From: Candidatus Methanophagales archaeon
Lineage (GTDB): Archaea > Halobacteriota > Syntropharchaeia > Alkanophagales > Methanospirareceae
DNA length: 50,604 bases
NCBI GenBank assembly: GCA_013139985.1
Contig: WSZT01000036.1
Location: 1 to 50,604, forward strand
Direction of reading: 5' to 3'
Numbering within the stretch: position 1 is the first letter of the stretch; each line of letters opens with the position of its first letter. This document shows, piece after piece, positions 2,773 through 25,933 of this stretch. The translations under genes and the position numbers were made by a program. The notes beneath the pieces were generated by a model, which saw only the letters and a list, made by a program, of their open reading frames with translations, did no database searches and was not told the DNA's origin.

Positions 2773-3786
2773 ATGCGATTAATACTTCCACACCCCGGGC
2801 ATTTCTCCGCTTTGAAAGAGATAATAGCAAGTAAAGAATCCAAGGGTCTGAAAGATGTAAGGGAGGTCTACATGGCCGGCTCGCCGGAAGTGATGGGGAG
2901 CGGAAGAGCGACACTATATGCACCGCTAATCGAGGATATAAAAGAGCAAACGGCATATGCGCATCAGCACAATGTAAAGCTAAATATCGCTATGAATGCC
3001 TCTTGCTTTGGTGGTTATCATCTAACGTTTGAAGGCTATAAAATGTTCAAATGGTATTTCAACGAGCTTAATAAGGCAGGCGTTGATGGCGTTACGGTGG
3101 CCGAGCCATATCTCGTAGAGCTTCTGCGTGATTCCCCGCTGGAAACGGTAATCTCATGCGTGGCGCATGTCGATTCGCCGCAACGTGCTGAATTCTTCGA
3201 GGATCTTGGCGCGGATGCGATCACCGTGGATACAAACATAAACCGGAACTTTGAGGTCTTAGAAGCAATAACGAAAGCGGTTAACTGCGACATCAGGGTA
3301 ATTGTGAATGAAGGCTGTCTTTATAAGTGCCCATTTCGGCATGCACATTTCAACCTCTTCTCGCACATAACCGCGTCATCCCTGAATGCTCGAACCCAGC
3401 CCCTGAACACTTTTGGCGACTACTATTTTGACAAGTGCATTTCTATCCGGGTAAGGGACCCCGCGCAGATTATAAGGTCGCCGTGGATAAGACCGGAAGA
3501 CATGAAGGAATATGAAGCGATAGGCATAGAAGATTTTAAGATTTCTGGTAGAGCGAATGCGGTGAACTGGATAATAAATTGCATGGCTGCATATTCGAAG
3601 GGCACGTTCGACGGTAACCTGCTTGAACTCCTCGATTGCCCATCGGAACTCCGTTATATGTTCCAGATAGATAATAAACTCCTGGACGGTAGTATAAAGC
3701 AATGGAAGAACTGCAAAAAGATATGTAATGAATGCCACTACTGCGATGAACTAACAAACAAGGTGTTGAGAGTGATAGAAAAATGA
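2773..3786 (+). CDS. U32-family Fe-S protein (putative O2-independent hydroxylase), paralog 1
   Basis: U32 TIM-barrel hallmarks (AH..NVKLNIAMN, GVDGVTVAEPYL, FKISGR), Cys motifs NEGCLYKCPF, DKC, and C-terminal CKKICNECHYC. Confidence 0.85.
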   Translation: MRLILPHPGHFSALKEIIASKESKGLKDVREVYMAGSPEVMGSGRATLYAPLIEDIKEQTAYAHQHNVKLNIAMNASCFGGYHLTFEGYKMFKWYFNELNKAGVDGVTVAEPYLVELLRDSPLETVISCVAHVDSPQRAEFFEDLGADAITVDTNINRNFEVLEAITKAVNCDIRVIVNEGCLYKCPFRHAHFNLFSHITASSLNARTQPLNTFGDYYFDKCISIRVRDPAQIIRSPWIRPEDMKEYEAIGIEDFKISGRANAVNWIINCMAAYSKGTFDGNLLELLDCPSELRYMFQIDNKLLDGSIKQWKNCKKICNECHYCDELTNKVLRVIEK

Positions 3787-4151
3787 AAGAAGAAATAAGT
3801 GAAGGCAGACGGAAGCTCGAGAAAGAACTGCGGGCTTTAGTGGGGAACATCTTCGTGCCGGAAGCGAAGGTATTTGGGATGGCTTGTGGCTGCGTAGGTT
3901 TCGCAGTGGATCTGAGAGGACTGCATGGCGATGATGTGGCGGTGTTCAAGGAGAAGATAAATGCGGTCCTGGAAGAGATAAGTCTCTCGGTTGGTGTAAA
4001 GCCGGAGTTCTTGTATGCGAGGAAGCTACCAGGTAGCGAAGAAGTGGTCACGCTTACTTCGCGTGAATTATGCGAGCGATGCAAAAGCGAGTTCGCAGGC
4101 TCAAAAGCAGCCCCAAGACCTGATATAGTAGTATTAAAGAAGAAGCGGTGA
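3783..4151 (+). CDS. Small Cys-containing conserved archaeal protein (DUF5402-like)
   Basis: ATGA overlap with the U32 stop (coupled translation); ACGCVG and CERC motifs. Family name is from recollection. Confidence 0.6.
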   Translation: MKEEISEGRRKLEKELRALVGNIFVPEAKVFGMACGCVGFAVDLRGLHGDDVAVFKEKINAVLEEISLSVGVKPEFLYARKLPGSEEVVTLTSRELCERCKSEFAGSKAAPRPDIVVLKKKR

Positions 4152-4164
4152 CAAACAAAATATA

Positions 4165-4178
4165 GAAAAGTTTTTAAA
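4165..4178 (+). promoter_or_regulatory. Putative BRE-TATA promoter of atwA-atwA-mcrC
   Basis: GAAAAG-TTTTTAAA in the intergenic region; resembles the element upstream of mcrB. Confidence 0.45.
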
Positions 4179-4307
4179 GGGGTAAAAAAGAACGTTTAAC
4201 TATAACAGCAAAAACTTCACTTTTATGTGCTAGGGACGCACAAATTATGTTGTTTGTCCATTACAAGGATATGGCTATAGGCAAAGAAGGAGGGGGAAAA
4301 GAGCGCG

Positions 4308-5909
4308 ATGGGAGAAGAGAAAGAGGTATTTATAAAAGTTAAAGGCGTGAATAAGCAATTCGAGGATAAAAAAGTATTGAAGGACATAAATCTGGATATA
4401 AAAGAGATGGAGCCTTTAGGTTTGCTCGGTAAGAGTGGCGCCGGGAAATCGGTCTTACTCCGTATGCTCCGAGGCACAGAAGAATATGCGCCGGATAGTG
4501 GTGAGATAATTTTTAGGTTGGCCTATTGCCCTTCCTGTACGTGGATAGAGGGCCCAAGCAGGGTAGGCGATAAGTGTCCGAAATGTGGTACCGAGTTTGA
4601 ATTTAAGGAAGTGAATTTCTGGCAGGATACGAGTATGAAGAGGACAATGAAGAGTGCGATTGCGATCATGCTCCAGCGCAGTTTCGCCTTGTATAGTGAC
4701 GAAGGCGTCATCTGGAATGTAATAGAAGCATTGGAGCGGGCACGATATCCAAAGAGTAAGAGGATGAAGAAGGCATATGAAATCCTGGAATCCGTAAAGA
4801 TGTTGCACCGTGTAAATATGCCTGATACAAGAGACCTCAGTGGTGGCGAGAAACAGAGAATGGTGCTTGCGAGGCAATTGGCGCTGGCTCCGATTCTGCT
4901 TTTAGCCGATGAGCCCACAGGTACGTTAGATCATGAGACAGCAAAGGTGGTGCATCGCGCACTGATAGAGACCACAAGAGGTGGAACAACATTCCTCGTC
5001 ACTTCTCATTGGCCGTATGTGATTAGGGAATTGACAGAGGAAACAGCATGGTTCGATAAGGGCGAAATAATTGAATATGGCCCGACGGATGAAGTGGTGA
5101 CTCATTTTGAGGCTCAAGTAGGCGAAATAGAGCGTGATGATTTTAAAAAGTTCGGCGACCCGATGATAAGGATAGAAAACCTAAAGAAGTATTACTTATC
5201 GGCATCGCGAGGCGTTGTGAAGGCGGTGGATGATGTCTCGTTCGAGATAAATGAGAATGAGATATTTGGTGTTGTCGGGCATAGCGGTGCGGGAAAGACG
5301 AGTTTAATGAGGATTGTAAGCCATTTAGACCCGGGGTCAGGTGGTTCTGCGTGGATAAGAGTCGGGGACAGATGGTATGAGGCATCAAAGGAGGATGCTG
5401 GTACATTCATAGAGAATGGCGTAATTGTGGGTGGTACGACCGAATGGAAATCCCATTTTGTGGGTGTCTTACATCAAGAATATAGTCTGATTCCGAAACT
5501 CACGGCCTGGGATAACCTTACGCACGGTATTGGTCTCGATATGCCAGAGGACTTAGCAACGATGAAGGTAAACTTCATGCTAAAAGGAGTGGGATTCGAA
5601 GAAGAAGAAATAGCGGAGATACTACCAAAAACGCATGATGAACTGAGCGTGGGCGAGAAACAGCGGATACTTATTGCGCAATTACTGATGAAAGAGCCTA
5701 ATATCGCGGTCCTTGATGAGCCAACCGGGACAATGGATCCGGTAACAAAGAAATACGTTGCCGAGACGATAATAAAGGCGAGGGAGAATCTGGGTACAAC
5801 TTTCGTTATTGTTACTCATGACCTTGATTTCGCAGAGAAGGTATGTGATCGAGTAGCGAAGATGGAGAATGGGAAAATCATAGAGATAGAAGATTTAAGG
5901 TCGGGTTAA
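4308..5909 (+). CDS. atwA: Methyl-coenzyme M reductase system component A2 (dual ABC ATPase), paralog 1
   Basis: Two NBDs (GKSGAGKS, GHSGAGKT; LSGGE, LSVGE; DEPTG), Zn-site insert CPSC..CPKC, AIMLQRSFALY, TSHWP and GVVKAVD motifs. Confidence 0.92.
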   Translation: MGEEKEVFIKVKGVNKQFEDKKVLKDINLDIKEMEPLGLLGKSGAGKSVLLRMLRGTEEYAPDSGEIIFRLAYCPSCTWIEGPSRVGDKCPKCGTEFEFKEVNFWQDTSMKRTMKSAIAIMLQRSFALYSDEGVIWNVIEALERARYPKSKRMKKAYEILESVKMLHRVNMPDTRDLSGGEKQRMVLARQLALAPILLLADEPTGTLDHETAKVVHRALIETTRGGTTFLVTSHWPYVIRELTEETAWFDKGEIIEYGPTDEVVTHFEAQVGEIERDDFKKFGDPMIRIENLKKYYLSASRGVVKAVDDVSFEINENEIFGVVGHSGAGKTSLMRIVSHLDPGSGGSAWIRVGDRWYEASKEDAGTFIENGVIVGGTTEWKSHFVGVLHQEYSLIPKLTAWDNLTHGIGLDMPEDLATMKVNFMLKGVGFEEEEIAEILPKTHDELSVGEKQRILIAQLLMKEPNIAVLDEPTGTMDPVTKKYVAETIIKARENLGTTFVIVTHDLDFAEKVCDRVAKMENGKIIEIEDLRSG

Positions 5910-5977
5910 TTTCACACGGAAATTCTGTTTCCGTATATAGGAGCACAATAAAATATAATATGATGGGCGTGGAAGAA

Positions 5978-7588
5978 ATGGGAGAAAAAGGGGTAATAGT
6001 AAAACTACAGGATATATGTAAGGAATTCGAGGGGAAAGAAGTTCTGAAGAATGTGAGTGTAGATATAAAGGAAGGGGAGTCATTGGGTCTACTTGGACGG
6101 AGTGGCTCAGGGAAATCAGCGTTGCTTCACATGCTGCGAGGTACTGAAGAATACGCACCCACAAGTGGCGAAATAATCTTCAGAGTGGCTATGTGCCCTT
6201 CATGCGACTGGGTGGATGCACCGAGTAAAGCAGGTGAGGCGTGTAATAAGTGCGGAGCAAAATTAGAATTGAAGGAAGTGAATTACTGGAAGGACAAAGA
6301 AGGAAAGAAGAAAGTGAAAAGGGCTGTTGCGATCATGCTCCAACGTACTTTTGGGTTATACAGTGATGATACAGTCATGTATAACGTAATACAGGCACTG
6401 GAGAGTAGGGATTACCCAGCAGAGAAGAAGTTTAAACGAGCTTATGATCTGTTGAAGTCGGTTAGAATGCTGCATCGTATTACCTTCCCCGCAGTTAACC
6501 TTAGTGGCGGTGAGAAACAGCGGGTAGTGCTCGCAAGGCAACTTGCATTAGATCCTATCTTACTTCTAGCAGACGAGCCCACGGGGACATTAGACTTTGA
6601 GACCGCAAAACTCGTACACAAAGCGCTGTTAGATAGTATAAAGGCGGGGATGACTATGGTTGTTACTTCCCACTGGCCTTACGTTATTAAAGAACTGTCA
6701 GAAAAGACGTTATGGCTTGAAAACGGCGAAATGGTGAAATATGGCGATTCAAAGGCGGTGGTGGAAGAGTTTGAGAGTCAGGTGGGCAAGATAGAACGTG
6801 AAGAATATACCAAAATAGGCGAGCCGAAGATAAAGATAGACCATTGTAAGAAGTATTATTATTCCATGTGGCGAGGAATGGTAAAAGCAGTGGATGATGT
6901 CACACTAACAATAAATGAGGGTGAAATATTTGGTCTCGTAGGCAAGAGTGGATCGGGAAAGACAAGCTTATCGCGGATTATAGCTCAAGTAGATCCGCTA
7001 ACGGATGGCTCTGTTCAGATACGGGTAGGCGATAGGTGGATAGAAGTGGGACGGGTGGCGGAAACGGGTGTCTGGCTTGCCTGGGGTGCGACTACGGAGG
7101 GAATGGGCGAGCAAGCGGCAGCACGGGTGGTTATGCTACATCAGGAATACTCATTATATCCGGAACACACAATATTAGCGAATCTAACCTCCTGTATCGG
7201 TTTGAAGATGCCAGAAGAGCTTGGGCGGATGAAAGCGAAGTTTGTTCTGCAAGGGGTGGGATTCAGCGAAGAAACAACGGAGGAAATACTGCCAAAAACG
7301 CATAGTGAACTGAGCGTTGGAGAAAGACAGCGTATTGCTCTTGCTCAGGTAATAATGAAGGAACCTGCAATAGCCGTGCTTGATGAGCCAACAGGCACAA
7401 TGGACCCGATAACAAAGAAATTCGTTGCCGATTCTATAAGGGCGGCACGTGAAAACCTTGGGGTGACACTCTTAATTGTCACTCACGACACGGATTTCGC
7501 TTACGATGTCTGTGATAAGATAGCGCAGATGCAGAATGGCAAGATAACGGAGATAGAAGACTTGAAATATGGTACCGAGCAAAAATAA
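5978..7588 (+). CDS. atwA: Methyl-coenzyme M reductase system component A2, paralog 2
   Basis: Same architecture as paralog 1 ([21 protein letters not shown]). Start at 5978 chosen by alignment with paralog 1; ORF track start is 5960. Confidence 0.92.
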
Positions 7589-8208
7589 TGGCCGTTGGTA
7601 GAGAGACGCAGATGTTAGCCTGCAGGAAAGGGCAGGGGCTTGGGTTAGGTGGCGGTATTGCCCAGAGAGGTACATTTGCGAAAGCGTGGAAGAACGATGT
7701 AGTTGCGGTTGCGATGTCTCCGGGTACAAGGCACGTGCCAAAGCCGGTATGCGAGATAACCACGGAATTAAGGGGTAAAGGTGTATCTACCGGTGTACTA
7801 GTCTTGAATGCCGGTAATGGGACGCCGCGTGATGCACCAAGGACTGGTGGACATGGTTCAATTTTTGGATTGGAGCAAAAAGAGATAGATATAATCGGTG
7901 GGCATAAGCTTGCCGTATTACATCATGGCAACGTAAAAGAGCATTTCATCTATAAAGTGCGGCTCGAGTTGAGAAAGATCCCGATTTCTGCTATCATCCT
8001 TTGTCAAAGCCCGGTAACGTTTGAGGAGTTCGAGCAGGTAGGTGTAAGCACGAGGAATAAAGAGTGTGAAACGCCGGGTAAAGTCGTGGGTATTGTGAGT
8101 GACATTGTGAGGCGAGAGAGTGTTCCGCAAGATAAACTAGACGAAATCGTGAGCAAAGTGAGAATGTGCCTCAGGGAAATAGAAGAGAGTGAAGAAAAAA
8201 AAGCCTAA
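7588..8208 (+). CDS. mcrC: Methyl-coenzyme M reductase operon protein C
   Basis: GRETQ..CR.G.GLG.GGGIAQRGT, AMSPG.RH..KPVCEIT and LVLNAG.G.P motifs; overlaps the atwA2 stop. Confidence 0.93.
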   Translation: MAVGRETQMLACRKGQGLGLGGGIAQRGTFAKAWKNDVVAVAMSPGTRHVPKPVCEITTELRGKGVSTGVLVLNAGNGTPRDAPRTGGHGSIFGLEQKEIDIIGGHKLAVLHHGNVKEHFIYKVRLELRKIPISAIILCQSPVTFEEFEQVGVSTRNKECETPGKVVGIVSDIVRRESVPQDKLDEIVSKVRMCLREIEESEEKKA

Positions 8209-8322
8209 ATTGATACTAACGTTCTTTACGCATTGTTTGAACTTGATACAACAGATCAAACCAAGGTGGCAAGACGTTCAATTAGTAATATATCAGAACA
8301 TTTAGCGTGAGATAAATGTTCC

Positions 8323-8886
8323 ATGGACGAAAAGGAAATAGCACTGTTGTGGGATGAAGACACAGCTTTTAAGCGGTATCTTGTGAATATGGGTTTTAAT
8401 TGTGAACTAGTAACACCGATAGTCTTAGTTGCTCCTTTCTTTTCCCTTACTGGTTATAAATTGTTAATTGTACCCGCGGGATTTGGGAATGAGACATATT
8501 CAAAGATATTGGTAGGGCTCAGAGCAAAAAGTGAACACATAAAAGATTTTGTAGAGGCGGGGGGGACACTCTTTATATTCGGTGCGCTTTCAAATAAGGA
8601 GGTATATAACTGGCTCCCGGTAAAACTCAAATATGTGATGGAGGAGAGGCGGGTAAGAATATTAGTGGTGAAGAAGCATAAAGCAGCGATGATAGTGGAA
8701 AAAGAAGAATGCATGTGTGATGGCTACTTTACGGAGGTAGGAGAAGAAGGCGAGATATTTTTAAAGGAAGAGGGAGGGAAAGCGATTTTGGCTCTCGCGG
8801 AATACGGAGCTGGTGCTATTATTGCTACAACAATCCATGAATATCCATCCAGGGAATTTATAGCGTATTGTGTGGGGAGAAGATAA
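8323..8886 (+). CDS. Conserved hypothetical protein (class I glutamine amidotransferase-like fold)
   Basis: LIVPAGFGN..YS, FVEAGGTLFIFGA and TTIHEYPS; resembles a conserved Methanomicrobia family. Confidence 0.6.
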   Translation: MDEKEIALLWDEDTAFKRYLVNMGFNCELVTPIVLVAPFFSLTGYKLLIVPAGFGNETYSKILVGLRAKSEHIKDFVEAGGTLFIFGALSNKEVYNWLPVKLKYVMEERRVRILVVKKHKAAMIVEKEECMCDGYFTEVGEEGEIFLKEEGGKAILALAEYGAGAIIATTIHEYPSREFIAYCVGRR

Positions 8887-8963
8887 TTGTATCTAATACG
8901 AACATATATCCATAAGCAAACATAAAAGTTATAAAGTCGCTATGTATAAGGGGGGGAGATATT

Positions 8964-11216
8964 GTGTTCAAGAAGATAGAAAAAAGAGATGGTAGGGTAA
9001 AAAAATTCGAAGTAGAGAAGATTACAAATGCAATTGCAAAAGCAGGTGAGGTGACCGGCGAATTCGATTATGAGATAGCGCAGAAATTGACCCTCAAGGT
9101 TTTGAATTTAGCACAACAGGCGATTCCCCGTGATATACCGACAGTGGAAGAGATACAGGATGTAGTCGAAGAGATTTTATTATCCTCTCCATATCGCAAA
9201 ACGGCTAAGGCGTACATTATTTATCGAGAGCAGCATGCGGGCATAAGAGAGATTACTTCCAGAGCGAATGTTGACCTGGTTGACCAATATTTAGAGAAGA
9301 TTGACTGGCAGGTGAACGAAAATAGCAATATGTCGTTCTCTCTACAAGGGTTAAACAATTATGTATCGTCGGAAATAACTAAAATTTACTGGCTGGTTAA
9401 AATTTACCCGCCGGAAATCAGGCAAGCGCATTTAAATGGCGATTTCCATATACACGACTTAAATCTTCTCTCCGTTTATTGTGTTGGCTGGGACCTTTTT
9501 GACCTTTTGGTAGAGGGATTCAAGGGGGCACCGGGGAAGATAGAAAGCAAACCAGCTAAGCATCTCCATAGCGCTTTAGGGCAGGTAGTGAATTTCTTTT
9601 ATACGCTTCAGGGTGAGGCGGCGGGAGCGCAAGCGTTCTCCAATTTTGATACGCTTCTTGCGCCTTTCATACGATATGATCGCTTGAGCTACAAAGAAGT
9701 GAAGCAGGCATTGCAGGAGTTTATATTTAACATAAATGTCCCTACAAGGGTAGGATTCCAAACTCCGTTCACAAACATCACCTTAGATTTGACGGTTCCT
9801 AAATACTACGCCGACAAGGGCGTGATTATTGGTGGCAAGCTACAGCACGAGACGTATAATGAGTTCCAGGAGGAAATGGCGTTGTTCAATAGGGCCTTTT
9901 TAGAAGTGATGGCAGAGGGCGATGCAAAAGGCCGGGTATTTACTTTCCCTATCCCTACCTATAACATTTCCAGGGACTTTAACTGGGAGAATAGTAATTT
10001 GGAAGGTCTATGGGAACTTACAGCAAAATACGGGGTGCCGTATTTCAGTAATTTTATCAATTCTGATATGAACCCTGAAGATGCCAGAAGCATGTGCTGT
10101 CGGTTAAGAATAGATAATAGAGAGTTAGAAGTAAGAGGAGGCGGACTTTTCGGCTCCAATCCCTTAACCGGTTCTATTGGTGTGGTCACGATTAACATGG
10201 GAAGACTTGGATATTTAGCCAAAGACGAAGATGAGTTCCTCACCTCTTTAGAACGGTTAATGATTCTGGCAAAGGCGAGTTTGGAGATAAAGAGGGGCGT
10301 GTTAGAGAAGTTTACGGAAGAAAAACTTTATCCGTATACACAATTTTATTTGAGAGGCGTAAAAGAGCGTTTTGGCGAATACTGGAAGAACCATTTCTCT
10401 ACGATTGGTTTATTGGGTATGAATGAAGCCTGCTTGAATTTCTTGGGAGTGGATATTGCAGCGAAAAAATCCCGGGAGTTTACCGTAAGAGTTTTAGATT
10501 TTATGCGTGAAAAATTACTGGAGTTCCAGGAGGAGACGGGGAATAATTATAATCTCGAGGCTACGCCAGCGGAGGGAACTTCTTATAGATTGGCGAGGAT
10601 AGACAAGGAGAAGAATCCAGAAATAATCTGCGCTAACGAAGAGGAGTATAAGGCAGGAGCCGAGCCGTTTTATACTAATTCTACACAACTACCGGTGAAT
10701 TACACGGATGATGTCTTCGAGGCGTTAGATTTGCAGGACGCAATCCAGACAAAATATACGGGAGGAACGGTATTACATGTATTCGCAGGTGAGCGGGTTA
10801 AAGACCCTGATACCATTAAGGGGTTAATACGTAAAGTTTGTGAGTCATATCATTTGCCTTATTTCACGTTCACGCCTACGTTTAGTGTATGTCCCTCTCA
10901 TGGTTATATCGCGGGGGAACATAGTACTTGTCCAGAGTGCGGTGCGGAGACCGAGGTATATTCACGTGTAGTGGGTTATCTACGGCCGGTAAACCAGTGG
11001 AACAAAGGTAAGCGGGAAGAATTTAGAAAACGGAAGACCTTTGTCGTAGAACCAGTTCAACCACTTGAAATCGGTGGAAAAGGGAAGGTGAGTCGGGCGT
11101 TGGATTCAACTACAAAAACAAGCAAAGCTGTTGGTGTCAAGGGCAATTATGGGGCTGTTGAGTATAAACAGTTGGATTTGATTACTTTTGGTGATGATGT
11201 GGATGAGACGGAATGA
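8964..11216 (+). CDS. nrdD: Class III (anaerobic) ribonucleoside-triphosphate reductase with N-terminal ATP cone
   Basis: KRDG ATP cone, SMCCRL, EATPAEG, CPSHG..CPEC Zn site, YSRVVGYLRPV glycyl-radical loop. Confidence 0.95.
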   Translation: MFKKIEKRDGRVKKFEVEKITNAIAKAGEVTGEFDYEIAQKLTLKVLNLAQQAIPRDIPTVEEIQDVVEEILLSSPYRKTAKAYIIYREQHAGIREITSRANVDLVDQYLEKIDWQVNENSNMSFSLQGLNNYVSSEITKIYWLVKIYPPEIRQAHLNGDFHIHDLNLLSVYCVGWDLFDLLVEGFKGAPGKIESKPAKHLHSALGQVVNFFYTLQGEAAGAQAFSNFDTLLAPFIRYDRLSYKEVKQALQEFIFNINVPTRVGFQTPFTNITLDLTVPKYYADKGVIIGGKLQHETYNEFQEEMALFNRAFLEVMAEGDAKGRVFTFPIPTYNISRDFNWENSNLEGLWELTAKYGVPYFSNFINSDMNPEDARSMCCRLRIDNRELEVRGGGLFGSNPLTGSIGVVTINMGRLGYLAKDEDEFLTSLERLMILAKASLEIKRGVLEKFTEEKLYPYTQFYLRGVKERFGEYWKNHFSTIGLLGMNEACLNFLGVDIAAKKSREFTVRVLDFMREKLLEFQEETGNNYNLEATPAEGTSYRLARIDKEKNPEIICANEEEYKAGAEPFYTNSTQLPVNYTDDVFEALDLQDAIQTKYTGGTVLHVFAGERVKDPDTIKGLIRKVCESYHLPYFTFTPTFSVCPSHGYIAGEHSTCPECGAETEVYSRVVGYLRPVNQWNKGKREEFRKRKTFVVEPVQPLEIGGKGKVSRALDSTTKTSKAVGVKGNYGAVEYKQLDLITFGDDVDETE

Positions 11217-17725: not shown

Positions 17726-17849
17726 TTTTTCTCTTAATTATTATATTGGCTACTAATTAATATTAAAAGATTAGAAATCTCGTATTTGTGATGAAACTAT
17801 ACCTTTTTTATGCTTTGCACACAAACAAGAAATAGGTGAAAAAAAAAAT

Positions 17850-18254: not shown

Positions 18255-18312
18255 AAGAAATTGTAGTGAAACAGTTATTAATATTAATAGAATACAAAAA
18301 ATCGGTGACAAA

Positions 18313-19797
18313 ATGCAAAGAAAGGTAGAAGAAAAGAAGACATTTATGCTTTTAGTGGTGGCGGGTATAGTGCTATTAACCGTAACGATAGGAACAGTGG
18401 CAGGGGCTGGATCTTCGAGTGGGGGCAGCGAGTGTCCTACTTGCAATTTTGAGCCTACTTATGACTTCTTGATGGGTGACGATGGAACCACCTGCTCTTC
18501 CTGTGGTGGTCAACGCCTGTCTGATTCTTTGAATCTTTTTTCTGATGATATTCCTATTCATCCTACAAATTGTGACTATGAGAATCCAGGCCTCATTGTT
18601 TATATGGACGATCTTAGAAATAACAGTGATCCAAATGTTGTGATCGCGGATGTTCGCACTCCTGAGCAATATGCGGAGGGGCACATTCCGGGTGCAATAA
18701 ATTTGGATTGGGCTAATTTCAGAAAGGGAAAAGGCGTTTTTATCGGAGTTGAAAATGCAACGAGGATTTTAGGTGAGCAGGGAATAAATGAGGAGAATGA
18801 AATAATCGTGTATTGCAGTAGTGCTATGGGTACGCAATGCCCGGCATCTTATTATGTCTTCTGGATGCTCGAATACCTCGGGCATGAGCACGTTTCGGTC
18901 CTGGATGGTGGGTTCAATGCATGGAGCCCTGCGTATGGATACACGCAGAACGAGACGACACGAGCTCCTACTACGTATACAGCCACTGTGGTGGACGAGA
19001 GGTTTGCCGATACAGAGTGGGTTCAAAATAATCTTAATAACTCGGCGGTTCAGATAGTGGATGCAAGAACGACAGAAGACTACAAGGCGGGTCATATCGA
19101 AGGTGCAATAAACATAAACTACGAAAATCTGTTTAGAGATGGGGACCGGTTGAGAGGAGCGGATGGACTGAGGTTGTTTTTATCGCCTGTCGTGATCCCC
19201 GGATTGGATAAAAAGAAGGATACAGTTGTGTATTGCCAATCAGGAGCGAGCGCGTCATTCTTGTATCTCGCATTGCGAATGATGGGTTATCAAGTGCGGA
19301 ATTATGACGGGTCATGGAACGTATGGTGTGAAACACATCCTGAGCTAACGATACCGATTTCAAATGTGAGTGTAAATCCGAGTTCTGTATATAAAGGTGG
19401 TACAGTAAGCATATATGCAGATGTAAAAATCAATTCTACTGAAATGAAGGAAGAGGCAACGGGCACCTCGCTTAATCCAAGTGGACGTAATCTACCATAT
19501 ATTCCCGGTGCAGGTTGCGCTTATTGTAGTGGCGCATCTGCTGTCCCGACATCCTCTACATCCACCGGTACTTCTTTTGTCCGTGGATACATATATGATG
19601 GCAATGGAACCAATGTTAAGATTGTCATTATGCAGACTGATGATAGCGGTGATAGGCGATATCTGGGTGAATGGGAGACAGACTCCGCAGAAGAGGGAAT
19701 TTACCACGTGGATATTGTAGCATCGGATGGAGTATTAAGGGCAAAGGAAAAGGATGCGGCAACGTTTGAAGTGGTGTCAGATACTGCGGGTCCCTAA
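18313..19797 (+). CDS. Exported/membrane-anchored tandem-domain rhodanese (sulfurtransferase) with C-terminal beta-sandwich
   Basis: N-terminal basic+hydrophobic signal; GHIPGA and GHIEGA; YCSSAMG and YCQSGASA loops; YDGSWNVW. Confidence 0.85.
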   Translation: MQRKVEEKKTFMLLVVAGIVLLTVTIGTVAGAGSSSGGSECPTCNFEPTYDFLMGDDGTTCSSCGGQRLSDSLNLFSDDIPIHPTNCDYENPGLIVYMDDLRNNSDPNVVIADVRTPEQYAEGHIPGAINLDWANFRKGKGVFIGVENATRILGEQGINEENEIIVYCSSAMGTQCPASYYVFWMLEYLGHEHVSVLDGGFNAWSPAYGYTQNETTRAPTTYTATVVDERFADTEWVQNNLNNSAVQIVDARTTEDYKAGHIEGAININYENLFRDGDRLRGADGLRLFLSPVVIPGLDKKKDTVVYCQSGASASFLYLALRMMGYQVRNYDGSWNVWCETHPELTIPISNVSVNPSSVYKGGTVSIYADVKINSTEMKEEATGTSLNPSGRNLPYIPGAGCAYCSGASAVPTSSTSTGTSFVRGYIYDGNGTNVKIVIMQTDDSGDRRYLGEWETDSAEEGIYHVDIVASDGVLRAKEKDAATFEVVSDTAGP

Positions 19798-19810
19798 TAT
19801 TAGAAAGAAA

Positions 19811-20812
19811 ATGCGATTAATAGTTCCACATCCGGGGCATTTTGAAGCGTTGAAGGAGATAATAGCGGTCAAAGAGGCGGAGGGCTTGAAGGAAGTAGAC
19901 GAGGTTTTTATGGGCGGATCTCCGGATGTGATGGGTAGTGGACGAGGAGTGCTACATGCACCGCTTATTGAAGAGATAAAGGAACAGACCGAATATGCGC
20001 ATCAACATGGCATAAAGATGAATGTGGTGATGAACTCAACATGTACAGGCGGGCATCACCTGACGTTCGAGGGCTATAAGATGTTTGAGTGGTACTTTGG
20101 GGAACTGAACAAAGCGGGTGTTGATGCAGTTACGATGGCAGAGCCATACTTGGTGGAGTTACTTCGTGAATTCCCAATGAAGATAGTTGTATCAGTTTTA
20201 TCGTATGTTGATGCGCCACAGCGAGCGAAATTCTTTGAAGACCTCGGCGCTGATGTGATAACCGTGGACACGAACATAAACCGGCACTTTGATCTGTTAG
20301 AGGGGATAGTAAAGGCGGTGAACTGTGACGTACGGATAATAGTGAATGAAGGCTGCCTATATAAATGCCCGTTTAGATACTCGCATTACAATCTCGCCTC
20401 GCATCTTAGTAGTTTAAACCAGCCTCAGTCTCCGCTATTTGCGCCCGACTATTATTTTGACAAGTGCATAGCCATCCGTCTGAGGAATCCGACACAGATG
20501 ATAAAGTCCGGATGGATAAGACCAGAGGACGTAAAGGAATACGAAGCAATAGGTATTGCGGACATCAAGCTTTCCGGTAGGACAAAGGCAGTGAATTGGA
20601 TAATAAATTGTATGCGGGTATATTCCAAGAGGTCGTACAAGGGTAACCTGCTTGAACTTCTTGATTGTCCTCAGATGCTCAGGTACATGTTTTACATAGA
20701 CAATGAGAAGCTTGCGGGTGGTATAGAGCACTGGAAGAGCTGCAAGAAGATATGTAATGAATGTGGCTATTGTGATACACTAACAAAGGACGCAGTAACC
20801 ATTTTAAAATGA
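19811..20812 (+). CDS. U32-family Fe-S protein (putative O2-independent hydroxylase), paralog 2
   Basis: Colinear with paralog 1 (MRLIVPHPGHF.ALKEII; NEGCLYKCPF; CKKICNECGYC). Start set to 19811 by alignment. Confidence 0.85.
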   Translation: MRLIVPHPGHFEALKEIIAVKEAEGLKEVDEVFMGGSPDVMGSGRGVLHAPLIEEIKEQTEYAHQHGIKMNVVMNSTCTGGHHLTFEGYKMFEWYFGELNKAGVDAVTMAEPYLVELLREFPMKIVVSVLSYVDAPQRAKFFEDLGADVITVDTNINRHFDLLEGIVKAVNCDVRIIVNEGCLYKCPFRYSHYNLASHLSSLNQPQSPLFAPDYYFDKCIAIRLRNPTQMIKSGWIRPEDVKEYEAIGIADIKLSGRTKAVNWIINCMRVYSKRSYKGNLLELLDCPQMLRYMFYIDNEKLAGGIEHWKSCKKICNECGYCDTLTKDAVTILK

Positions 20813-20869
20813 GAATCGAAGAAAACAATTATGCTTTCTTGAATCTGACATATATATGTCCACGAGGCA

Positions 20870-21433
20870 TTGAGTATTAACTATGCTATGACTTTATTGG
20901 AGAATGAAGCCAAACTGGTGAAGAGGTTGTGTGCGCGAATTTTAGAGGCAGAAGAAGAAAAGCGAAAGATACTGGATCTTGGGTGTGGCAGTGGAAAACT
21001 CGCAGTATATTTGAGTGAAGAGACGGGATATGATGTTACCGGGGTAGATCCCAGCCGCGAGCGAATAGAAAAAGCACGAGAGAAATCGTCTTCTGTCACC
21101 TTTGAGGTTCAGCCTGCGGATGAGACGGCTTTTGCGGATAGCACATTTGATGTAGTCGTATCGCTAAAGTCATGGCATGAAATGGTCAATCCAAAAGCGG
21201 CATTACGAGAATCCATGCGGCTACTTACAGAAGGCGGGAAGATATATATTATCGACTGGGTAGGCGGTGTCGGGCATACGAAGAAGTATTTCACAATGGA
21301 GACTAGAGCACATGCGAAGAAGTATTTCACGATGGAACGTCTAAGGGAAATGCTTTCAGAAGCAGGATTTACCTATATAAGAATTGAACTTAATATTGAG
21401 GGTGAATTGATGTTGGCGGAAGGACAGAAGTAA
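20870..21433 (+). CDS. Class I SAM-dependent methyltransferase (UbiE-like)
   Basis: ILDLGCGSG, GVDPS, FDVV and L..GG.IYIIDW motifs; start uncertain. Confidence 0.85.
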   Translation: MSINYAMTLLENEAKLVKRLCARILEAEEEKRKILDLGCGSGKLAVYLSEETGYDVTGVDPSRERIEKAREKSSSVTFEVQPADETAFADSTFDVVVSLKSWHEMVNPKAALRESMRLLTEGGKIYIIDWVGGVGHTKKYFTMETRAHAKKYFTMERLREMLSEAGFTYIRIELNIEGELMLAEGQK

Positions 21434-21943
21434 ATGCAAAATGCAAAATATCCATCTTATCGCGCGGCCAAAAATAGCGAGTCACAGGGTTTTCCTTTTG
21501 GCTCTTCGCTGCTTCGCCACATCCGCCCCTCATCTTGCTCGCCTTTTTATATTTTGTAATCTAAGTGCACAATGGAAGAGGTATTAGAGATGTATTTCGG
21601 GAGACCCAAACACGAGCAAAAAGTATCTTTTTGGATATATTTAGTGCAAGCATTATTTGTGCAGTTGAATAAAGCCCCATATAAAACTTTCGGAATTCAG
21701 CACCAAATTAACAAATTCGATGCCACGGGATATTAATCAATTACAAACTCCGCTATATGTGCCTCTATTAACTGATACGGGCTGCAGAATGCATGCACGT
21801 CCATTATTTGGGGCCATTACAATTAGATGTGAGTGTATACCACCCACACTTTTTATTAAATTGTCATAACAGGTATGAACAATCGTTAAGTCTGTACGAC
21901 TCCATTCCGGTGGGCATCTCAATTTTGGAAGCGCGAAAAATAT

Positions 21944-21977
21944 CGAAAAGCTTTTATGTATAGGTACAGTATGTACC
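21944..21977 (+). promoter_or_regulatory. Putative mcr promoter (BRE-TATA) with adjacent palindrome
   Basis: CGAAAAG-C-TTTTATGTA followed by GGTACA-gta-TGTACC; AAGGAGG SD before mcrB. Confidence 0.6.
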
Positions 21978-22033
21978 CATGTGTACTCTATGATGTGTAG
22001 AGTAAACGAAATAAGTAAGGAGGAAAAAAAAAT

Positions 22034-23329
22034 ATGGCAGACGAGATAGATTTATATGATGACAGAGGTAGCGTATTAGCGAAGGGCGTACCACTAGATG
22101 CGATCAGTCCGTTGAAGAATGCTGCGATAAAGAAGATTATCAGCATGACCATTCGGACAGGTGCGGTTGACATGGCGGGCCTGGACAAGAAGTTGAAGAC
22201 AGGGGCAATAGCCGGAAGAGGTATGGTAATCCGGGGCGTAGGAAGAGACATCCCTGTACTAGACAAGGTGAACGAGATAGCGAAATCCGTAGAGGACATG
22301 CTGCGTGTTGAACCAGGCGATGACACGAAAGTCGAGTTAATCGCAGGTGGAAAGCGGATGTTGACGCAGGTGCCAACGGCAAGGATCCTATCCGATTACT
22401 CCGTAGGTCTAACAGCGGCAATGGGTGCGCTGACGCACGCGATAATAGACGTATGCGACGTGAGTATGTGGGATGCACCGTATGTGCATGCAGCAGTATG
22501 GGGAATGTACCCCCAGAATCCAGACCCGGCAGATGGAGCAGTAAAGATGCTCGTGGATATACCGATGAAGAATGAGGGTCCGGGATTTACGCTGAGGAAC
22601 ATACCTGTGAACCACTTAGCGGCGACAGTGCGGAAGAGAGCGATTCAGGGTTCTGCATTAACCATGATCCTGGAAGAGGCAGCGCAGTTTGAGATGGGTA
22701 ACTGCATGGGACCCCATGAGCGTGGGCATCTTCTGGACCTGGCGTATGAGGGACTGAATGCGAACAACCTATTGTACAACCTGATAAAGGATAACGGAAA
22801 GGGTACACTGGCCGATGTTGTGTATGGCCTGGTGGAGAAAGCAAAAGAAGACGGCGTGATAAAACCTAAGAAGAAGCTGGGATCCGGGTACATGGTTTAT
22901 GAGGCACCAGATCCACAGTTGTGGAATGCATATGCATCTGCGGGACTGCTTGCAGCGGTATGCGTGAATTGCGGTGCGATGCGTGCAGGTCAATCAGTAC
23001 CAGGATGTATCATGTATTTCAACGTGCTGCTGGAGCATGAGACCGGTATGCCTGGAGTGGATCATGGAATGGCACAAGGTGCTTCTGTATCGAGTTCGTT
23101 CTTTTCGCACTCGATCTATGGAGGCGGAGGACCAGGAGTGTTCTACGGGAACCACATCGTTACGAGGCATCCGAAAGGTCAGTTCATACCATGCTTCTGC
23201 GCTTCGATGTGCTTAGATGCGGACACGATGTACTTCTCACCAGCGAGGACATCTGCGCTGTATGGAGAGGTACTGGGAGCGATACCGGAGTTTGCGGAGC
23301 CGATGAAAGCGGTTGCAGGAGCCGTATAA
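22034..23329 (+). CDS. mcrB: Methyl-coenzyme M reductase beta subunit
   Basis: D.IDLYDDRG, AISPL.N, NEGPGF.LRNI..NH and SFFSHSIYGGGGPGVF.GNHIVTRH motifs. Confidence 0.98.
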   Translation: MADEIDLYDDRGSVLAKGVPLDAISPLKNAAIKKIISMTIRTGAVDMAGLDKKLKTGAIAGRGMVIRGVGRDIPVLDKVNEIAKSVEDMLRVEPGDDTKVELIAGGKRMLTQVPTARILSDYSVGLTAAMGALTHAIIDVCDVSMWDAPYVHAAVWGMYPQNPDPADGAVKMLVDIPMKNEGPGFTLRNIPVNHLAATVRKRAIQGSALTMILEEAAQFEMGNCMGPHERGHLLDLAYEGLNANNLLYNLIKDNGKGTLADVVYGLVEKAKEDGVIKPKKKLGSGYMVYEAPDPQLWNAYASAGLLAAVCVNCGAMRAGQSVPGCIMYFNVLLEHETGMPGVDHGMAQGASVSSSFFSHSIYGGGGPGVFYGNHIVTRHPKGQFIPCFCASMCLDADTMYFSPARTSALYGEVLGAIPEFAEPMKAVAGAV

Positions 23330-23349
23330 ATAAGGAGGAAAGAAAAAAA

Positions 23350-24192
23350 ATGCCACAATATTGTCAAGGAAAAACACATATAGCTGATACACGAAGAAGA
23401 TACATGAACCCAAACGTCAAGTTAGAGAAGCTGAGAGACATAGCGGAAGAGGACATTGTGAGATTACTTGCACACCGTGCTCCAGGAGAAGAGTACAAGA
23501 GTATTCATCCACCTCTGGAAGAGATGGAAGAGCCGGATTGCGCAGTTCGTCAGATGGTAGAGCCTACAGATGGTGCAAAAGCAGGTGACCGAATAAGATA
23601 CGTGCAGTACACCGATTCGATGTTCTTCTCACCGATAACGCCTTATCTACGTGCACAGTCTGCGTTTAACAGGTATAGAGGTATAGACCCAGGAGTGCTA
23701 TCAGGGAGAACGATCATAGAAGCGAGAGAGAGAGACGTAGAGAAGATAGCCAAGGAAACACTCGATAGTGAGCTCTACGATACTGCAAGGACCGGACTGA
23801 GAGGAAGGACAGTGCACGGGCATGCGGTTCGACTGGATGCGAACGGTATGATGTTCGATGCTCTGCGGAGATGGTCAGTAGATGAGCGCACAAAAGAGGT
23901 TACTTACGTGAAGGACATGATCGGCGGTGCGATGGACAAAGAGGTAGTAATGGGCAAGCCACTGTCAGAAGCAGACTTACTGAAGAGGACGTGCATGTAC
24001 AGGAACGCGCAAGGCGGAGTCTGGCAAGAGGAAGATGATCCGGAGTCAATGGATGTATGTGCAGAGATACACTGGAAGAGAACGGTAGGTGGATTCCAGC
24101 CCTGGAAGAATATATCAGACGTAAAAGGTGGAAAGAAGGACATAGGCGTGAAGAACCTGAAGTTGTTCGTACCAAGAGGAGGAGTATTATAA
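23350..24192 (+). CDS. mcrG: Methyl-coenzyme M reductase gamma subunit
   Basis: True start MPQY at 23350 behind AAGGAGG; HRAPGEEY.SIHPPLEEM, GAKAGDRIRY.Q, LSGR and TVHGH..RLD..GMMFD motifs. Confidence 0.97.
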   Translation: MPQYCQGKTHIADTRRRYMNPNVKLEKLRDIAEEDIVRLLAHRAPGEEYKSIHPPLEEMEEPDCAVRQMVEPTDGAKAGDRIRYVQYTDSMFFSPITPYLRAQSAFNRYRGIDPGVLSGRTIIEARERDVEKIAKETLDSELYDTARTGLRGRTVHGHAVRLDANGMMFDALRRWSVDERTKEVTYVKDMIGGAMDKEVVMGKPLSEADLLKRTCMYRNAQGGVWQEEDDPESMDVCAEIHWKRTVGGFQPWKNISDVKGGKKDIGVKNLKLFVPRGGVL

Positions 24193-24193
24193 A

Positions 24194-25933
24194 ATGCCAT
24201 ATAATGATATACAGCATAGTTTCATGAAGGCGATGTCAGATAAGTTCGATGAGAAGCCAGAGAGTACCGAGACAAAGTTCTACGTGTATGGTGGTATAGC
24301 GCAGAAAGGAGGGATGAGGAAGCGAGAGTTCATAGCTGAAGCGAAGAAGATCGTAGATAGCCGGGTATCTGGTACGCCAGCGTACAATCCTGATGTAGGG
24401 ATGCCGCAAGGGCAGAGATTCTTGATGCCTTACATGATGAACCACACGGACATCATGGTGAACGCGGACGATCTGCACTGGATAAACAATGCAGCAATGC
24501 AGCAGTGCTGGGACGACATGAAGAGAGGTATCGTCTTAGGACTAGACGATGCGCACGGCCTGTTAGAGGCGAGATTGGGTAAGGAAGTTACGCCTGATAC
24601 AATAAGCCACTACATGGAAGTTCTGAACCACGCATTACCTGGTGGTGCGGTCATTCAGGAGCACATGGTGGAGACGAAGCCAATGCTCGTAAATGACAGT
24701 TACGCGAAGATATTCACCGGTGATGACGACCTTGCAGATGCTGTAGACAGGAGGTTCCTGTTAGACATCAACAAGGAGTTCGCAGCAGGCTGGGAGAAAC
24801 CAGGCGAGCAGGCAGACCAGTTGAAAGATGCAATTGGGAAGAAGATCTGGCAGGTCCTGTGGATGCCCACAGTCGTAGGGAGGATGACCGATGGTGGAAC
24901 GATGTTCAGATGGGTAGGTATGCAGGTCGGAATGACAATGATAAGTGCATACAAGTTGTGCGCAGGGGAATCAGTTACGGGTGAATTCGCATACTATGCG
25001 AAGCATGCCGCAGTGGTTCAGTTGTCAAACTACATGCCGGTAAAGAGAGCAAGGGCACATAACGAGCCTGGTGGAATGCCATTAGGTATAAATGCAGACA
25101 GTGTGAGATCACCTGCATTGTTCCCGAACGACCCGATAAGGGATGAATTAGAGAGCATCGCAGTTGCAGCTATGGTTTACGACCAGTTGTGGTTCGGAAC
25201 GTACATGTCTGGAGGTGTAGGATTCACGCAGTATGCGAGTGCAACATACACGGACAACATCCTGGAGGACTTCTGCTACAAGGGCTGTGAGATAGGACTG
25301 GATTACGCAGGTGGCGAAATGGCTTCGGTAAAGGGCGACAAGCTCAACATGGACATCCTGGAACAGATAATAAGAGCAGAGAACGATTATGCACTGACGC
25401 AATACGAAGCATACCCGACAGTTGCGGAGTCGCACTTCGGTGGATCGGTTAGGGCATGCTGTGCAGCAGCGGGATGTGGTAGTGCAGTTGCATGTGCAAC
25501 AGGACTTGCACAGCCAACGCTGAGTGCGTGGTCATTGTCTATGCTGGGACACTACGAGCGTAAAGGAAGACTAGGATTCTTCGGATACGATCTGCAAGAC
25601 CAGTGTACAGCATGTGGTTCGTATTCATACCAGAGCGATGAGGGAATGCCATTCGAGATGAGAGGCGTGAACTATCCGAACTACGCGATGAATGTGGGCC
25701 ATCAGAGTGCGTACGCCGGTCTGGTAGCGGGAGCACACTGTGCGAACAAGGACGCATGGGTACTGTCACCATTGTGGAAGGTGGCGTTCTCAGATCGTGA
25801 CCTACCGTTCGACCGTGGATACGTAACCAAGGAGTACGGACTGGGAGCAAACAGGGAATACACCAAGGTTGCAGGAGAGAGAGACCTGATAATCGCGGGA
25901 CATTACGGCAGAGAACCTGGTGCAAGGTTGTAA
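24194..25933 (+). CDS. mcrA: Methyl-coenzyme M reductase alpha subunit, ANME-1 type
   Basis: DDLHWINN, AVIQEHMVE, YDQLWFGTYMSGGVGFTQYA, HFGGSVRACC, RLGFFGYDLQDQC and NYPNYAMNVGHQ motifs. Confidence 0.99.
   Translation: MPYNDIQHSFMKAMSDKFDEKPESTETKFYVYGGIAQKGGMRKREFIAEAKKIVDSRVSGTPAYNPDVGMPQGQRFLMPYMMNHTDIMVNADDLHWINNAAMQQCWDDMKRGIVLGLDDAHGLLEARLGKEVTPDTISHYMEVLNHALPGGAVIQEHMVETKPMLVNDSYAKIFTGDDDLADAVDRRFLLDINKEFAAGWEKPGEQADQLKDAIGKKIWQVLWMPTVVGRMTDGGTMFRWVGMQVGMTMISAYKLCAGESVTGEFAYYAKHAAVVQLSNYMPVKRARAHNEPGGMPLGINADSVRSPALFPNDPIRDELESIAVAAMVYDQLWFGTYMSGGVGFTQYASATYTDNILEDFCYKGCEIGLDYAGGEMASVKGDKLNMDILEQIIRAENDYALTQYEAYPTVAESHFGGSVRACCAAAGCGSAVACATGLAQPTLSAWSLSMLGHYERKGRLGFFGYDLQDQCTACGSYSYQSDEGMPFEMRGVNYPNYAMNVGHQSAYAGLVAGAHCANKDAWVLSPLWKVAFSDRDLPFDRGYVTKEYGLGANREYTKVAGERDLIIAGHYGREPGARL

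Follow-up and report, generated by a model that had tools for sequence, protein, structure and literature searches.

The 23-kb MCR region of a Candidatus Methanophagales genome joins two ANME-1-wide accessory modules, one of them with a putative tryptophan hydroxylase system

Which genes equip methyl-coenzyme M reductase (MCR) of the ANME-1 anaerobic methanotrophic archaea with its lineage-specific modifications? This question is raised by a 23-kb region (positions 2773–25933) of contig WSZT01000036.1 from the Candidatus Methanophagales archaeon assembly GCA_013139985.1, of which 50,604 nucleotides, referred to here as the window, were analysed. The region begins with a gene of the U32 family (U32-A) and a gene for a small protein of the DUF5402 family, ends in mcrBGA, and holds in between both known MCR helpers and many orphan enzymes. 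The initial annotation had read it as possibly a complete lineage-specific maturation pathway, with hydroxylation, sulfur insertion and methylation accounting for the ANME-1 modifications. The gene order that it gave was reproduced exactly by the list of open reading frames (ORFs) and by Pfam and NCBIfam searches of the window proteins (Table 1), and the helpers, namely two copies of component A2 (AtwA), McrC and YcaO, do co-localise with the orphan enzymes in the window. A2 and McrC are members of the ATP-driven complex that reduces cofactor F430 to Ni(I) (PMC12176620), and YcaO makes the thioglycine of McrA (PMC7058361; these and most later sources are cited for the accessible part of their text). 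A set of ANME-1 MCR accessory modules, in which U32 and DUF5402 form a McrA hydroxylase system, appears to us the best overall explanation of the locus, and a reasonably probable one.

The window McrA matches PDB 3SQG_A, the Black Sea ANME-1 MCR, from end to end (1289 bits, 579/579 residues, ~95% identity as judged by eye), and in this alignment it retains H271, W333, V419, G464 and M499, which the accessible literature describes as the residues modified in ANME-1 MCR or accommodating its methylthio-F430. The window genus is therefore the genus where 7-hydroxy-tryptophan (7-OH-Trp), S-oxymethionine and methylthio-F430 were seen. As an aside, ANME-1 McrA falls just under the TIGR03256 equivalog cut-off, so that automatic annotation may leave it unnamed.

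To see which genes travel together, U32-B, the second U32 paralogue of the region, was searched in 41 related genomes, the neighbourhoods of its matches were fetched, and the window proteins were mapped onto them by tblastn. This gave 68 ANME-1 loci (L033–L100), 56 of them outside the window genus; many neighbour contigs are short, and the per-gene locus counts are thus lower bounds. The U32-B query had a match in 23/24 other ANME-1-family genomes, with two copies in nearly all, and found one U32 copy in each of the two genomes of the sister family. U32-A was present in 56/68 ANME-1 loci and lay beside DUF5402 in 54 of these, and in 44/68 loci U32-B and U32-A stood in tandem with their ends touching. 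The longest loci (e.g. L016, L017, L053, L059 and L069) read U32-B, U32-A, DUF5402, atwA, atwA, mcrC, h187 (a conserved hypothetical gene) and MTase304 (a methyltransferase gene), followed on the opposite strand by the small gene h127 and a Zn ribbon gene that face ycaO. The distance from this U32 block to mcrA varies, from ~12 kb in genome G016 and 25 kb in G021 to > 200 kb on one contig in G015, and the entire 23-kb contiguity is found in the window genus only (L035, L037). Confined to this genus (L033, L035, L037, L085 and L096) are also the insertion of nrdDG between h187 and MTase304, that of the deoxyribosyltransferase and dGTPase genes between MTase304 and h127, and the displacement of U32-B, which normally adjoins U32-A on its upstream side, to a downstream position behind the rhodanese gene.

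The second methyltransferase gene, MTase187, has a different neighbourhood. At E ≤ 1e-15, MTase187 was found in 23 of the 24 other ANME-1 genomes searched and in 0/16 genomes from other families. By comparison of its coordinates with those of mcrA, checked in L119–L122, its place is directly upstream of mcrBGA in 10 genomes from 7 genera. In 4 further genomes it shares a contig with mcrA at a distance of 7–45 kb, and one of these four, G015, has it directly beside atwA-mcrC; MTase187 stays with MCR genes in whatever arrangement. None of the 56 other-genus loci, in turn, holds mcrBGA, MTase187, the rhodanese or the flavoprotein gene beside the U32 block, which gives no support to one conserved, complete maturation pathway. 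The region is a genus-specific merger of two ANME-1-wide MCR accessory modules. One consists of the two U32 paralogues, DUF5402, the two A2 copies, McrC, h187, MTase304 and the small protein and Zn ribbon facing ycaO, the other of MTase187-mcrBGA. The nrdDG, deoxyribosyltransferase and dGTPase genes belong to nucleotide metabolism and stand outside MCR function.

A scatter of the orphan genes across other ANME-1 genomes had been named beforehand as the outcome that would speak against their forming one pathway with the helpers, and the genes divide on this point. Both U32 genes, DUF5402, h187, MTase304, h127 and the Zn ribbon are linked with MCR helpers in other genera, as MTase187 is with mcrBGA or atwA-mcrC, so that the U32/DUF5402/h187 group and the two methyltransferases are conserved. 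The rhodanese, flavoprotein and radical SAM (S-adenosylmethionine) genes are scattered: the rhodanese occurs in 7/7 same-genus genomes and in 0/17 other ANME-1 genomes, flavoprotein matches of ≥ 81% identity are limited to the window genus and one other genome, and rSAM317, the radical SAM gene, is present in 23/24 other ANME-1 genomes, mostly unlinked to the block. Sulfur insertion found no support. Against NCBIfam, rSAM317 matched generic activase-like models only (best 69.8 bits versus a cut-off of 250), with no match to a methylthiotransferase or sulfur-inserting family, and it was set aside as a sulfur inserter; the rhodanese was set aside as sulfur donor for methylthio-F430 for its genus-restricted distribution. 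The assembly has a further rhodanese paralogue at another site (G000:C177:19347-20600), with 61% identity to that of the window, and this paralogue is also present in 6/7 other same-genus genomes.

The hydroxylation idea fared better, although as a property of two genes and not of the whole region, and its real support comes from the phylogenetic profile of U32-DUF5402. Hydroxy-Trp is present in the MCR of M. formicicus, ANME-2c and ANME-2d (6-OH) and of ANME-1 (7-OH), and absent from M. marburgensis I and II, M. wolfeii, M. barkeri, M. acetivorans, M. kandleri, M. thermolithotrophicus, M. shengliensis and the ethyl-coenzyme M reductase of Ethanoperedens (PMC9081873 Table 1; PMC12413448). The genomes of M. 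formicicus, M. thermolithotrophicus and M. marburgensis were assigned by McrA identity to PDB or MCR sequences. U32-DUF5402 is carried by ANME-1 (the window), by ANME-2c (L159, L160, L171) and by ANME-2d (L101–L108), and the two genes stand side by side in G352, whose McrA is identical to M. formicicus 5N28_A over 548/548 residues. Neither gene was found in G351, with a McrA identical to M. thermolithotrophicus 5N1Q_A over 548/548 residues. DUF5402 was found in 0/9 genomes of the genus of one Methanothermobacter metagenome-assembled genome (MAG), which include G355 with a McrA identical to M. marburgensis MCR I over 546/546 residues, and the M. acetivorans control genome was negative too. The pair is accordingly present in 4/4 hydroxy-Trp sources and not found in 3/3 tested sources lacking this modification, with M. 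kandleri discordant, which amounts to agreement in 7/8 structurally characterised MCR sources. The M. kandleri MCR structure is reportedly of low resolution and older than the discovery of hydroxy-Trp, and we therefore do not count the discordance as decisive. From this profile we infer that U32-DUF5402 is an O2-independent tryptophan hydroxylase of McrA, a proposal whose chances we put slightly above even. In wider samples DUF5402 was detected in 65/301 genomes of the window's phylum, in 15/40 Methanococcales genomes and, among 14 named control genomes, only in M. jannaschii. A side observation concerns G353, more closely related to the M. formicicus-type G352 than any other genome (McrA 1207 bits against 5N28_A), a genome of one contig without U32 and DUF5402.

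Outside ANME-1, the pair is again met at MCR genes. U32-DUF5402 lies beside mcrB in 6/8 Methanoperedens loci, directly downstream of mcrA in Methanoliparum, and downstream of a mcrA homologue in two Syntrophoarchaeum-type genomes. When the scan was repeated around a Methanocaldococcus U32, it gave at least 80 loci, 77 of them new. Among the loci listed, the groups represented were Methanocaldococcus, Methanothermococcus, ANME-3 (Methanovorans), ANME-2c (Methanogaster), other ANME-2, Methanolobus, Methanococcoides, Methanohalophilus, Methanoperedens, Methanoliparum and ANME-1, and DUF5402 came right after U32 in 75 of these 77 new loci, which span two phyla. Named DUF5402 members include M. jannaschii MJ1658 and proteins of M. 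kandleri and Methanothermobacter tenebrarum. U32-DUF5402 is a near-invariant gene pair, and DUF5402 the obligate partner of this U32 type. The Syntrophoarchaeum-type genomes show two peculiarities of their own: DUF5402 is duplicated and fused there into proteins of 241–253 aa (L030:11505-12263; P0124, P0126), and U32 is present in about four full-length copies in G033 and three in G036, with four mcrA homologues per genome.

The two proteins look suited to holding metal. U32-A and U32-B share 70% identity, and their Pfam match is weak (38.2 and 33.9 bits), covering only the first third of the PF01136 model (positions 5–90 of 233). Nine cysteines are invariant in 8 aligned U32 sequences (C78, C172, C182, C186, C219, C311, C315, C318 and C321, in U32-B numbering from residue 20). 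In DUF5402, C35, C37, C97 and C100 (CGC...CxxC) are invariant in 11 aligned sequences; its predicted model is a compact alpha/beta domain (predicted local distance difference test, pLDDT, 93) with no match among solved folds in the PDB by Foldseek at E ≤ 0.001, and in the ESM Atlas the best score, 0.81 to bacterial clusters, was uninformative. Complex prediction for U32 with DUF5402 scored 0.01 and gave no support, which we count as evidence neither way. The DUF5402 family is small, 1.84 billion representatives yielding 46 clusters of it at 50% identity. One metagenomic protein of 2229 aa (P0125) contains 42 separate stretches matching the DUF5402 profile (E 1.3e-56) on a single 35-kb contig, and looks like a giant repeat protein made from part of the domain. 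In the U32 tree, a single clade unites all ANME-1 sequences of U32-A and of U32-B (24/48 rows, support 100/97), with Methanoliparum and then ANME-2d as neighbours, and the deep-branching ANME-1c genomes have two separate U32-DUF5402 units. The single clade and the two ANME-1c units point to a duplication at the base of ANME-1, the lineage whose MCR has two oxygen-bearing modifications; the duplicates could work as a heterodimer or as separate enzymes, each with its own target. The sole solved structure found by sequence is PDB 5D88 (E 5.2e-20, query residues 70–220), a U32 protein of Methanopyrus kandleri, which like the window also encodes DUF5402; its 254-aa chain has no cysteines aligned with the CX3C pair, and the C-terminal cysteine cluster of the window proteins lies outside the matched stretch.

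[quoted passage not shown] By analogy, U32 and DUF5402 would form a Fe-S, O2-independent hydroxylase acting on McrA that installs 7-OH-Trp333 in ANME-1 and 6-OH-Trp elsewhere, with prephenate as the probable oxygen donor and DUF5402, a putative four-cysteine metal-binding protein, as adaptor or electron partner. Genes for chorismate mutase and prephenate dehydratase are present in the genome of the window, which is a precondition for dependence on prephenate. The closest parallel is UbiU-UbiV, which with UbiT forms the O2-independent ubiquinone hydroxylase of E. coli: both systems have U32 domains, two neighbouring genes for U32 paralogues (in most ANME-1), conserved cysteines fit for Fe-S binding, a small accessory gene in the operon and a prephenate pathway in the cell, and both would hydroxylate an aromatic ring under anoxia. 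They differ in the proposed substrate, here a protein tryptophan and not a quinol, in the cysteine spacing, to which the window proteins add a C-terminal CX3CX2CX2C, and in the accessory protein, which is DUF5402 and not an SCP2 lipid carrier; the likeness itself is the weak Pfam match of 34–38 bits, and, with just one U32 in most lineages here, no heterodimer is needed. TrhP (YegQ) and RlhA (YdcP) likewise hydroxylate an aromatic ring within a macromolecule in an O2-independent way and need prephenate as well as Fe-S supply, but their substrates are RNA (ho5U34 of tRNA, ho5C2501 of 23S rRNA), their distribution is bacterial, and no DUF5402 partner is mentioned in the accessible accounts.

To our knowledge, methylthio-F430 has been reported only from ANME-1. 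Its makers are unknown according to the accessible text of two papers, the sole ANME-1 methylthiotransferase tested having been inactive on F430 (PMC10702137; PMC9081873). The restriction of MTase187 to ANME-1 among the genomes searched and its place beside MCR genes make it a speculative candidate for the S-methyltransferase of 17(2)-methylthio-F430. MTase304, searched at the same threshold and with the same outcome as MTase187 (23/24 other ANME-1 genomes, 0/16 outside), has an N-terminal part of ~150 aa without family match and a C-terminal class I SAM domain. By description this is the layout of McmA (MA4545), the methyltransferase for the S-methylcysteine of McrA, which also lies near MCR genes (PMC7058361). 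The comparison is one of domain layout only. MTase304 had no match outside ANME-1 among the genomes searched at E ≤ 1e-15, and MTase304-like genes (28–37% identical) occur near U32 in ANME-2/3 among the loci listed. MTase304 thus resembles McmA in architecture, and a role in S-methylcysteine formation may be suggested speculatively.

Other members of the U32 module invite similar comparisons. The predicted h187 structure (pLDDT 91.6) has 2gk3_A as its best Foldseek match (E 1.7e-9), and, among the loci listed, an h187 homologue (29–39% identity) lies ~5.8 kb downstream of DUF5402 in loci of Methanolobus or of Methanosarcinaceae/Methanosarcinales MAGs. YcaO scores above the equivalog cut-off; TfuA (PF07812), its partner in many methanogens, had no match in the window's own genome, which is 87% complete, and the small protein and the Zn ribbon face ycaO instead. 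Either h127 or the Zn ribbon might substitute for TfuA, a suggestion that comes from their conserved position, neither having a family match. Compared with the MCR activation complex of M. maripaludis (McrC, Mmp7, Mmp17, Mmp3, A2 and DUF2098), the window encodes McrC and A2, the latter duplicated, and lacks Mmp3, Mmp7 and Mmp17; U32, DUF5402 and h187 are not parts of that complex as described in the accessible text (PMC12176620).

Several points weigh against U32-DUF5402 as a tryptophan hydroxylase and against the roles given to the methyltransferases. We know of no U32 protein that acts on a protein. None has been shown to hydroxylate in vitro, as far as the accessible text of one paper goes (PMC10990095). 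The cysteine spacing of the window proteins, CX9CX3CX32C plus the C-terminal CX3CX2CX2C, departs from the published CX6CX15CX3/4C of other U32 families, in which four conserved cysteines bind a [4Fe-4S] cluster (10.1101/587956). The ANME-1 hydroxyl sits on C7, and elsewhere it sits on C6 of a different tryptophan, so that one family needs two regiospecificities. M. kandleri has both DUF5402 and this U32 type (5D88), yet its MCR is listed without hydroxy-Trp (PMC9081873). The profile covers 8 organisms, some of them kin, and is no statistical proof; for most carriers, that is Methanolobus, Methanococcoides, Methanohalophilus, Methanocaldococcus and some Methanothermococcus, we found no published data on MCR modification. 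Among the loci listed, the pair lies away from mcr genes in Methanolobus, Methanococcoides, Methanohalophilus, Methanocaldococcus and some Methanothermococcus, and even in ANME-1 the U32 block and mcrBGA can be separated by the > 200 kb seen in G015. The roles of MTase187 and MTase304, finally, are read from where the genes occur and what they are linked to, and methyltransferases of class I are functionally promiscuous.

Other explanations have to be set beside this one. If the whole 23-kb region were one lineage-specific pathway, in which the rhodanese, radical SAM protein, flavoprotein, U32 proteins and methyltransferases jointly made the ANME-1 modifications, it would make sense that the window and the same-genus loci L033, L035, L037 and L096, from the very genus of the crystallised enzyme, have all the genes in one place. 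C17(2) of F430 adjoins a ketone, and a persulfide sulfur transfer at this carbon, followed by S-methylation, is conceivable. The genus restriction of the rhodanese makes this reading quite unlikely, since methylthio-F430 is reported from a thermophilic ANME-1 culture of another lineage (PMC10702137), and the near restriction of close flavoprotein orthologues to the genus, the mostly unlinked rSAM317 with no sulfur-inserting family match, and the established other roles of nrdDG and the dGTPase tell against it as well. Another possibility is that the pair serves MCR in a different way, as a redox or assembly factor for A2 and McrC, in modification of F430, or in forming the sulfoxide of Met499. 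Its position directly upstream of atwA-atwA-mcrC in ANME-1 would fit, as would cysteine-rich proteins with likely Fe-S or metal sites and the presence of a second oxygen-bearing modification, S-oxymethionine, in ANME-1 MCR. We regard it as rather unlikely, because the pair was not found in M. marburgensis, M. thermolithotrophicus and M. acetivorans, all with normal MCR activation, because the accessible text on the purified M. maripaludis activation complex makes no mention of U32 (PMC12176620), and because the distribution of the pair follows hydroxy-Trp in 7/8 cases.

The substrate might also be something other than MCR, such as tRNA, rRNA or a quinone-like cofactor, with proximity to mcr incidental. 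The characterised U32 hydroxylation systems all use RNA or quinones (PMC10990095), the pair stands apart from mcr genes in the Methanolobus, Methanococcoides and Methanocaldococcus loci listed, and a methyltransferase is often nearby among the loci listed, as in hydroxylation-methylation pathways. What renders this improbable in our eyes is the linkage of the pair to mcr, to acr (alkyl-coenzyme M reductase genes) or to atwA-mcrC in four separate lineages, the restriction of the named members found to MCR- or ACR-encoding archaea (bacteria or non-methanogens do appear in a few MAG labels), the small size of the family at 46 clusters, and a presence and absence that split close Methanococcales in step with hydroxy-Trp. 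Going by the historical name of the family, and by the title under which 5D88 was deposited, 'Predicted protease of the collagenase family', the U32 genes would encode genuine peptidases for the processing of MCR subunits or of other proteins. Later-studied members have, however, been tied to Fe-S-dependent hydroxylation and not to proteolysis (PMC10990095; 10.1101/587956), the nine invariant cysteines favour metal clusters, and McrA in the crystal is full length relative to the gene (579/579 residues), so that a peptidase is highly improbable. McrA tryptophan hydroxylation by U32-DUF5402 can be extended into a bolder joint claim: that the pair is the first known O2-independent protein hydroxylase, that the ANME-1 duplicates make the two oxygen-bearing modifications peculiar to ANME-1 MCR, 7-OH-Trp333 and S-oxy-Met499, and that MTase187 methylates an F430 thiol, which would be placed on the enolisable carbon beside the ring ketone of F430 with no radical SAM methylthiotransferase. 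We consider it unlikely that all three parts hold together.

The genes of the region are collected in Table 1, and the remainder of the window encodes housekeeping and mobile functions (proteasome, exosome, primase, PCNA, transposases).

Table 1. Genes of region 2773–25933, with the evidence for each call and the number of ANME-1 loci outside the window genus (of 56) in which each gene was found at the U32 locus.
Gene	Position	Strand	Product	Evidence	Other-genus loci
U32-A	2773-3786	+	U32 family, 337 aa	PF01136 38.2 bits (cut-off 22.4)	
DUF5402	3783-4151	+	small 4-Cys protein, 122 aa	PF17393 128.2 bits (cut-off 25)	52/56
atwA-1	4308-5909	+	MCR component A2, ABC-type ATPase	TIGR03269 634.6 bits (cut-off 517.1)	19/56
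atwA-2	5960-7588	+	second component A2 copy	TIGR03269 674.4 bits (cut-off 517.1)	23/56
mcrC	7588-8208	+	MCR activation complex subunit	TIGR03264 244.5 bits (cut-off 213.5)	30/56
h187	8323-8886	+	conserved hypothetical, 187 aa	predicted ThuA-like / class I glutamine-amidotransferase-like fold	28/56
nrdD	8964-11216	+	anaerobic ribonucleotide reductase	NF006126 1086 bits	5/56
nrdG	11259-11951	+	nrdD activase	TIGR02495 216 bits	
MTase304	12047-12961	+	class I SAM methyltransferase, 304 aa	Pfam methyltransferase domains, residues 153-271	18/56
deoxyribosyltransferase	13065-13526	-	nucleoside 2-deoxyribosyltransferase-like	PF05014 85 bits	not found
dGTPase	13647-14846	-	dGTPase-like HD protein	NF002327 271 bits (cut-off 393); TIGR01353 153.8 bits (cut-off 152.35)	not found
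h127	14911-15216/15294, start probably 15216	-	small hypothetical, probably ~100 aa	ORF listing	16/56, always on strand opposite to block
Zn ribbon	15228-15464	-	78 aa, CxxC...CxxC ('Zn finger' of the initial annotation)	ORF listing	11/56, always on strand opposite to block
ycaO	15506-16702	+	methanogenesis marker 1, McrA glycine thioamidation	TIGR03266 406.2 bits (cut-off 365)	3/56
rSAM317	16772-17725	-	radical SAM, 317 aa, small 'activase-like' type	PF04055 80 bits	3/56
flavoprotein	17850-18254	+	PNPOx-type flavoprotein	Pfam/NCBIfam	0/56
rhodanese	18313-19797	+	two domains, 494 aa	Pfam/NCBIfam	0/56
U32-B	19754-20812, likely start 19811	+	second U32 paralogue	PF01136 33.9 bits (cut-off 22.4)	
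MTase187	20870-21433	+	class I SAM methyltransferase, 187 aa	Methyltransf_23 82 bits	0/56
mcrB	22034-23329	+	MCR subunit gene	TIGR03257 552 bits	0/56
mcrG	about 23353-24192	+	MCR subunit gene	TIGR03259 332 bits	0/56
mcrA	24194-25933	+	MCR subunit gene	TIGR03256 741.3 bits (below cut-off 767.75); both Pfam domains match	0/56

The start of DUF5402 overlaps the end of U32-A by 4 bases. A 600-base spacer without any plus-strand ORF of ≥ 60 aa precedes mcrB (21434–22033), and presumably holds the mcr promoter and leader; in one run, contigs from RNA libraries stop or carry insertions at ~22015–22016. Such contigs, from four runs in three studies, span 30/30 bins of positions 2700–22650, and 27/30 for X5. 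They give no transcription level, strand or operon structure and may include DNA carry-over, and were not used for co-expression with mcrA. Upstream of U32-A (692–2704) lie genes for a CxxCxxCC (PF03692) metal-binding protein, a 153-aa hypothetical protein and a PEMT/ICMT-type membrane methyltransferase, which are kept beside U32-A only in same-genus loci (L078, L081, L085). Downstream of mcrA (28971–29653) there is a HepT-like RNase and nucleotidyltransferase pair of toxin-antitoxin type, and several same-genus genomes have a nucleotidyltransferase gene with 33–38% identity between U32-B and MTase187 (in L035 together with HepT). Loci that bear HepT or the nucleotidyltransferase are L003, L004, L007 and L034–L036, and it seems that a mobile pair of this kind entered the MCR locus in several same-genus genomes. 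Further along (36757–39037 and 43458–50229), a GIY-YIG nuclease adjoins an N6/N4 DNA methylase, a possible restriction-modification pair, and IS110-type and ISAzo13-type transposases flank a NosD-like beta-helix protein of 942 aa.

As to the literature, our full-text search, outside which subscription journals lay, returned no paper on DUF5402 and nothing relevant joining prephenate and MCR, and the accessible text named no enzyme for hydroxy-Trp or methylthio-F430. An enrichment of U32 in ANME-2/3 has been noted and called hard to interpret (10.1101/2024.05.23.595608). A further mention of U32 (PMC3226654) proved unrelated to MCR and was discarded.

MCR makes or consumes nearly all biological methane. 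Expression of ANME enzymes in methanogens is hampered by ignorance of what makes the lineage-specific modifications and methylthio-F430, as stated in the accessible text of three papers (PMC12413448; PMC9081873; PMC10702137). Our analysis narrows a 23-kb gene list to a few candidates: U32 and DUF5402 for hydroxy-Trp, and one methyltransferase that may supply the S-methyl of methylthio-F430. If the proposed hydroxylase role is true, prephenate-type anaerobic hydroxylation would extend from quinones and RNA to proteins, MCR would be predicted to carry hydroxy-Trp in Methanocaldococcus, Methanopyrus, Methanolobus and Methanococcoides, and U32-DUF5402 would serve as a simple gene marker of hydroxy-Trp in metagenomes.

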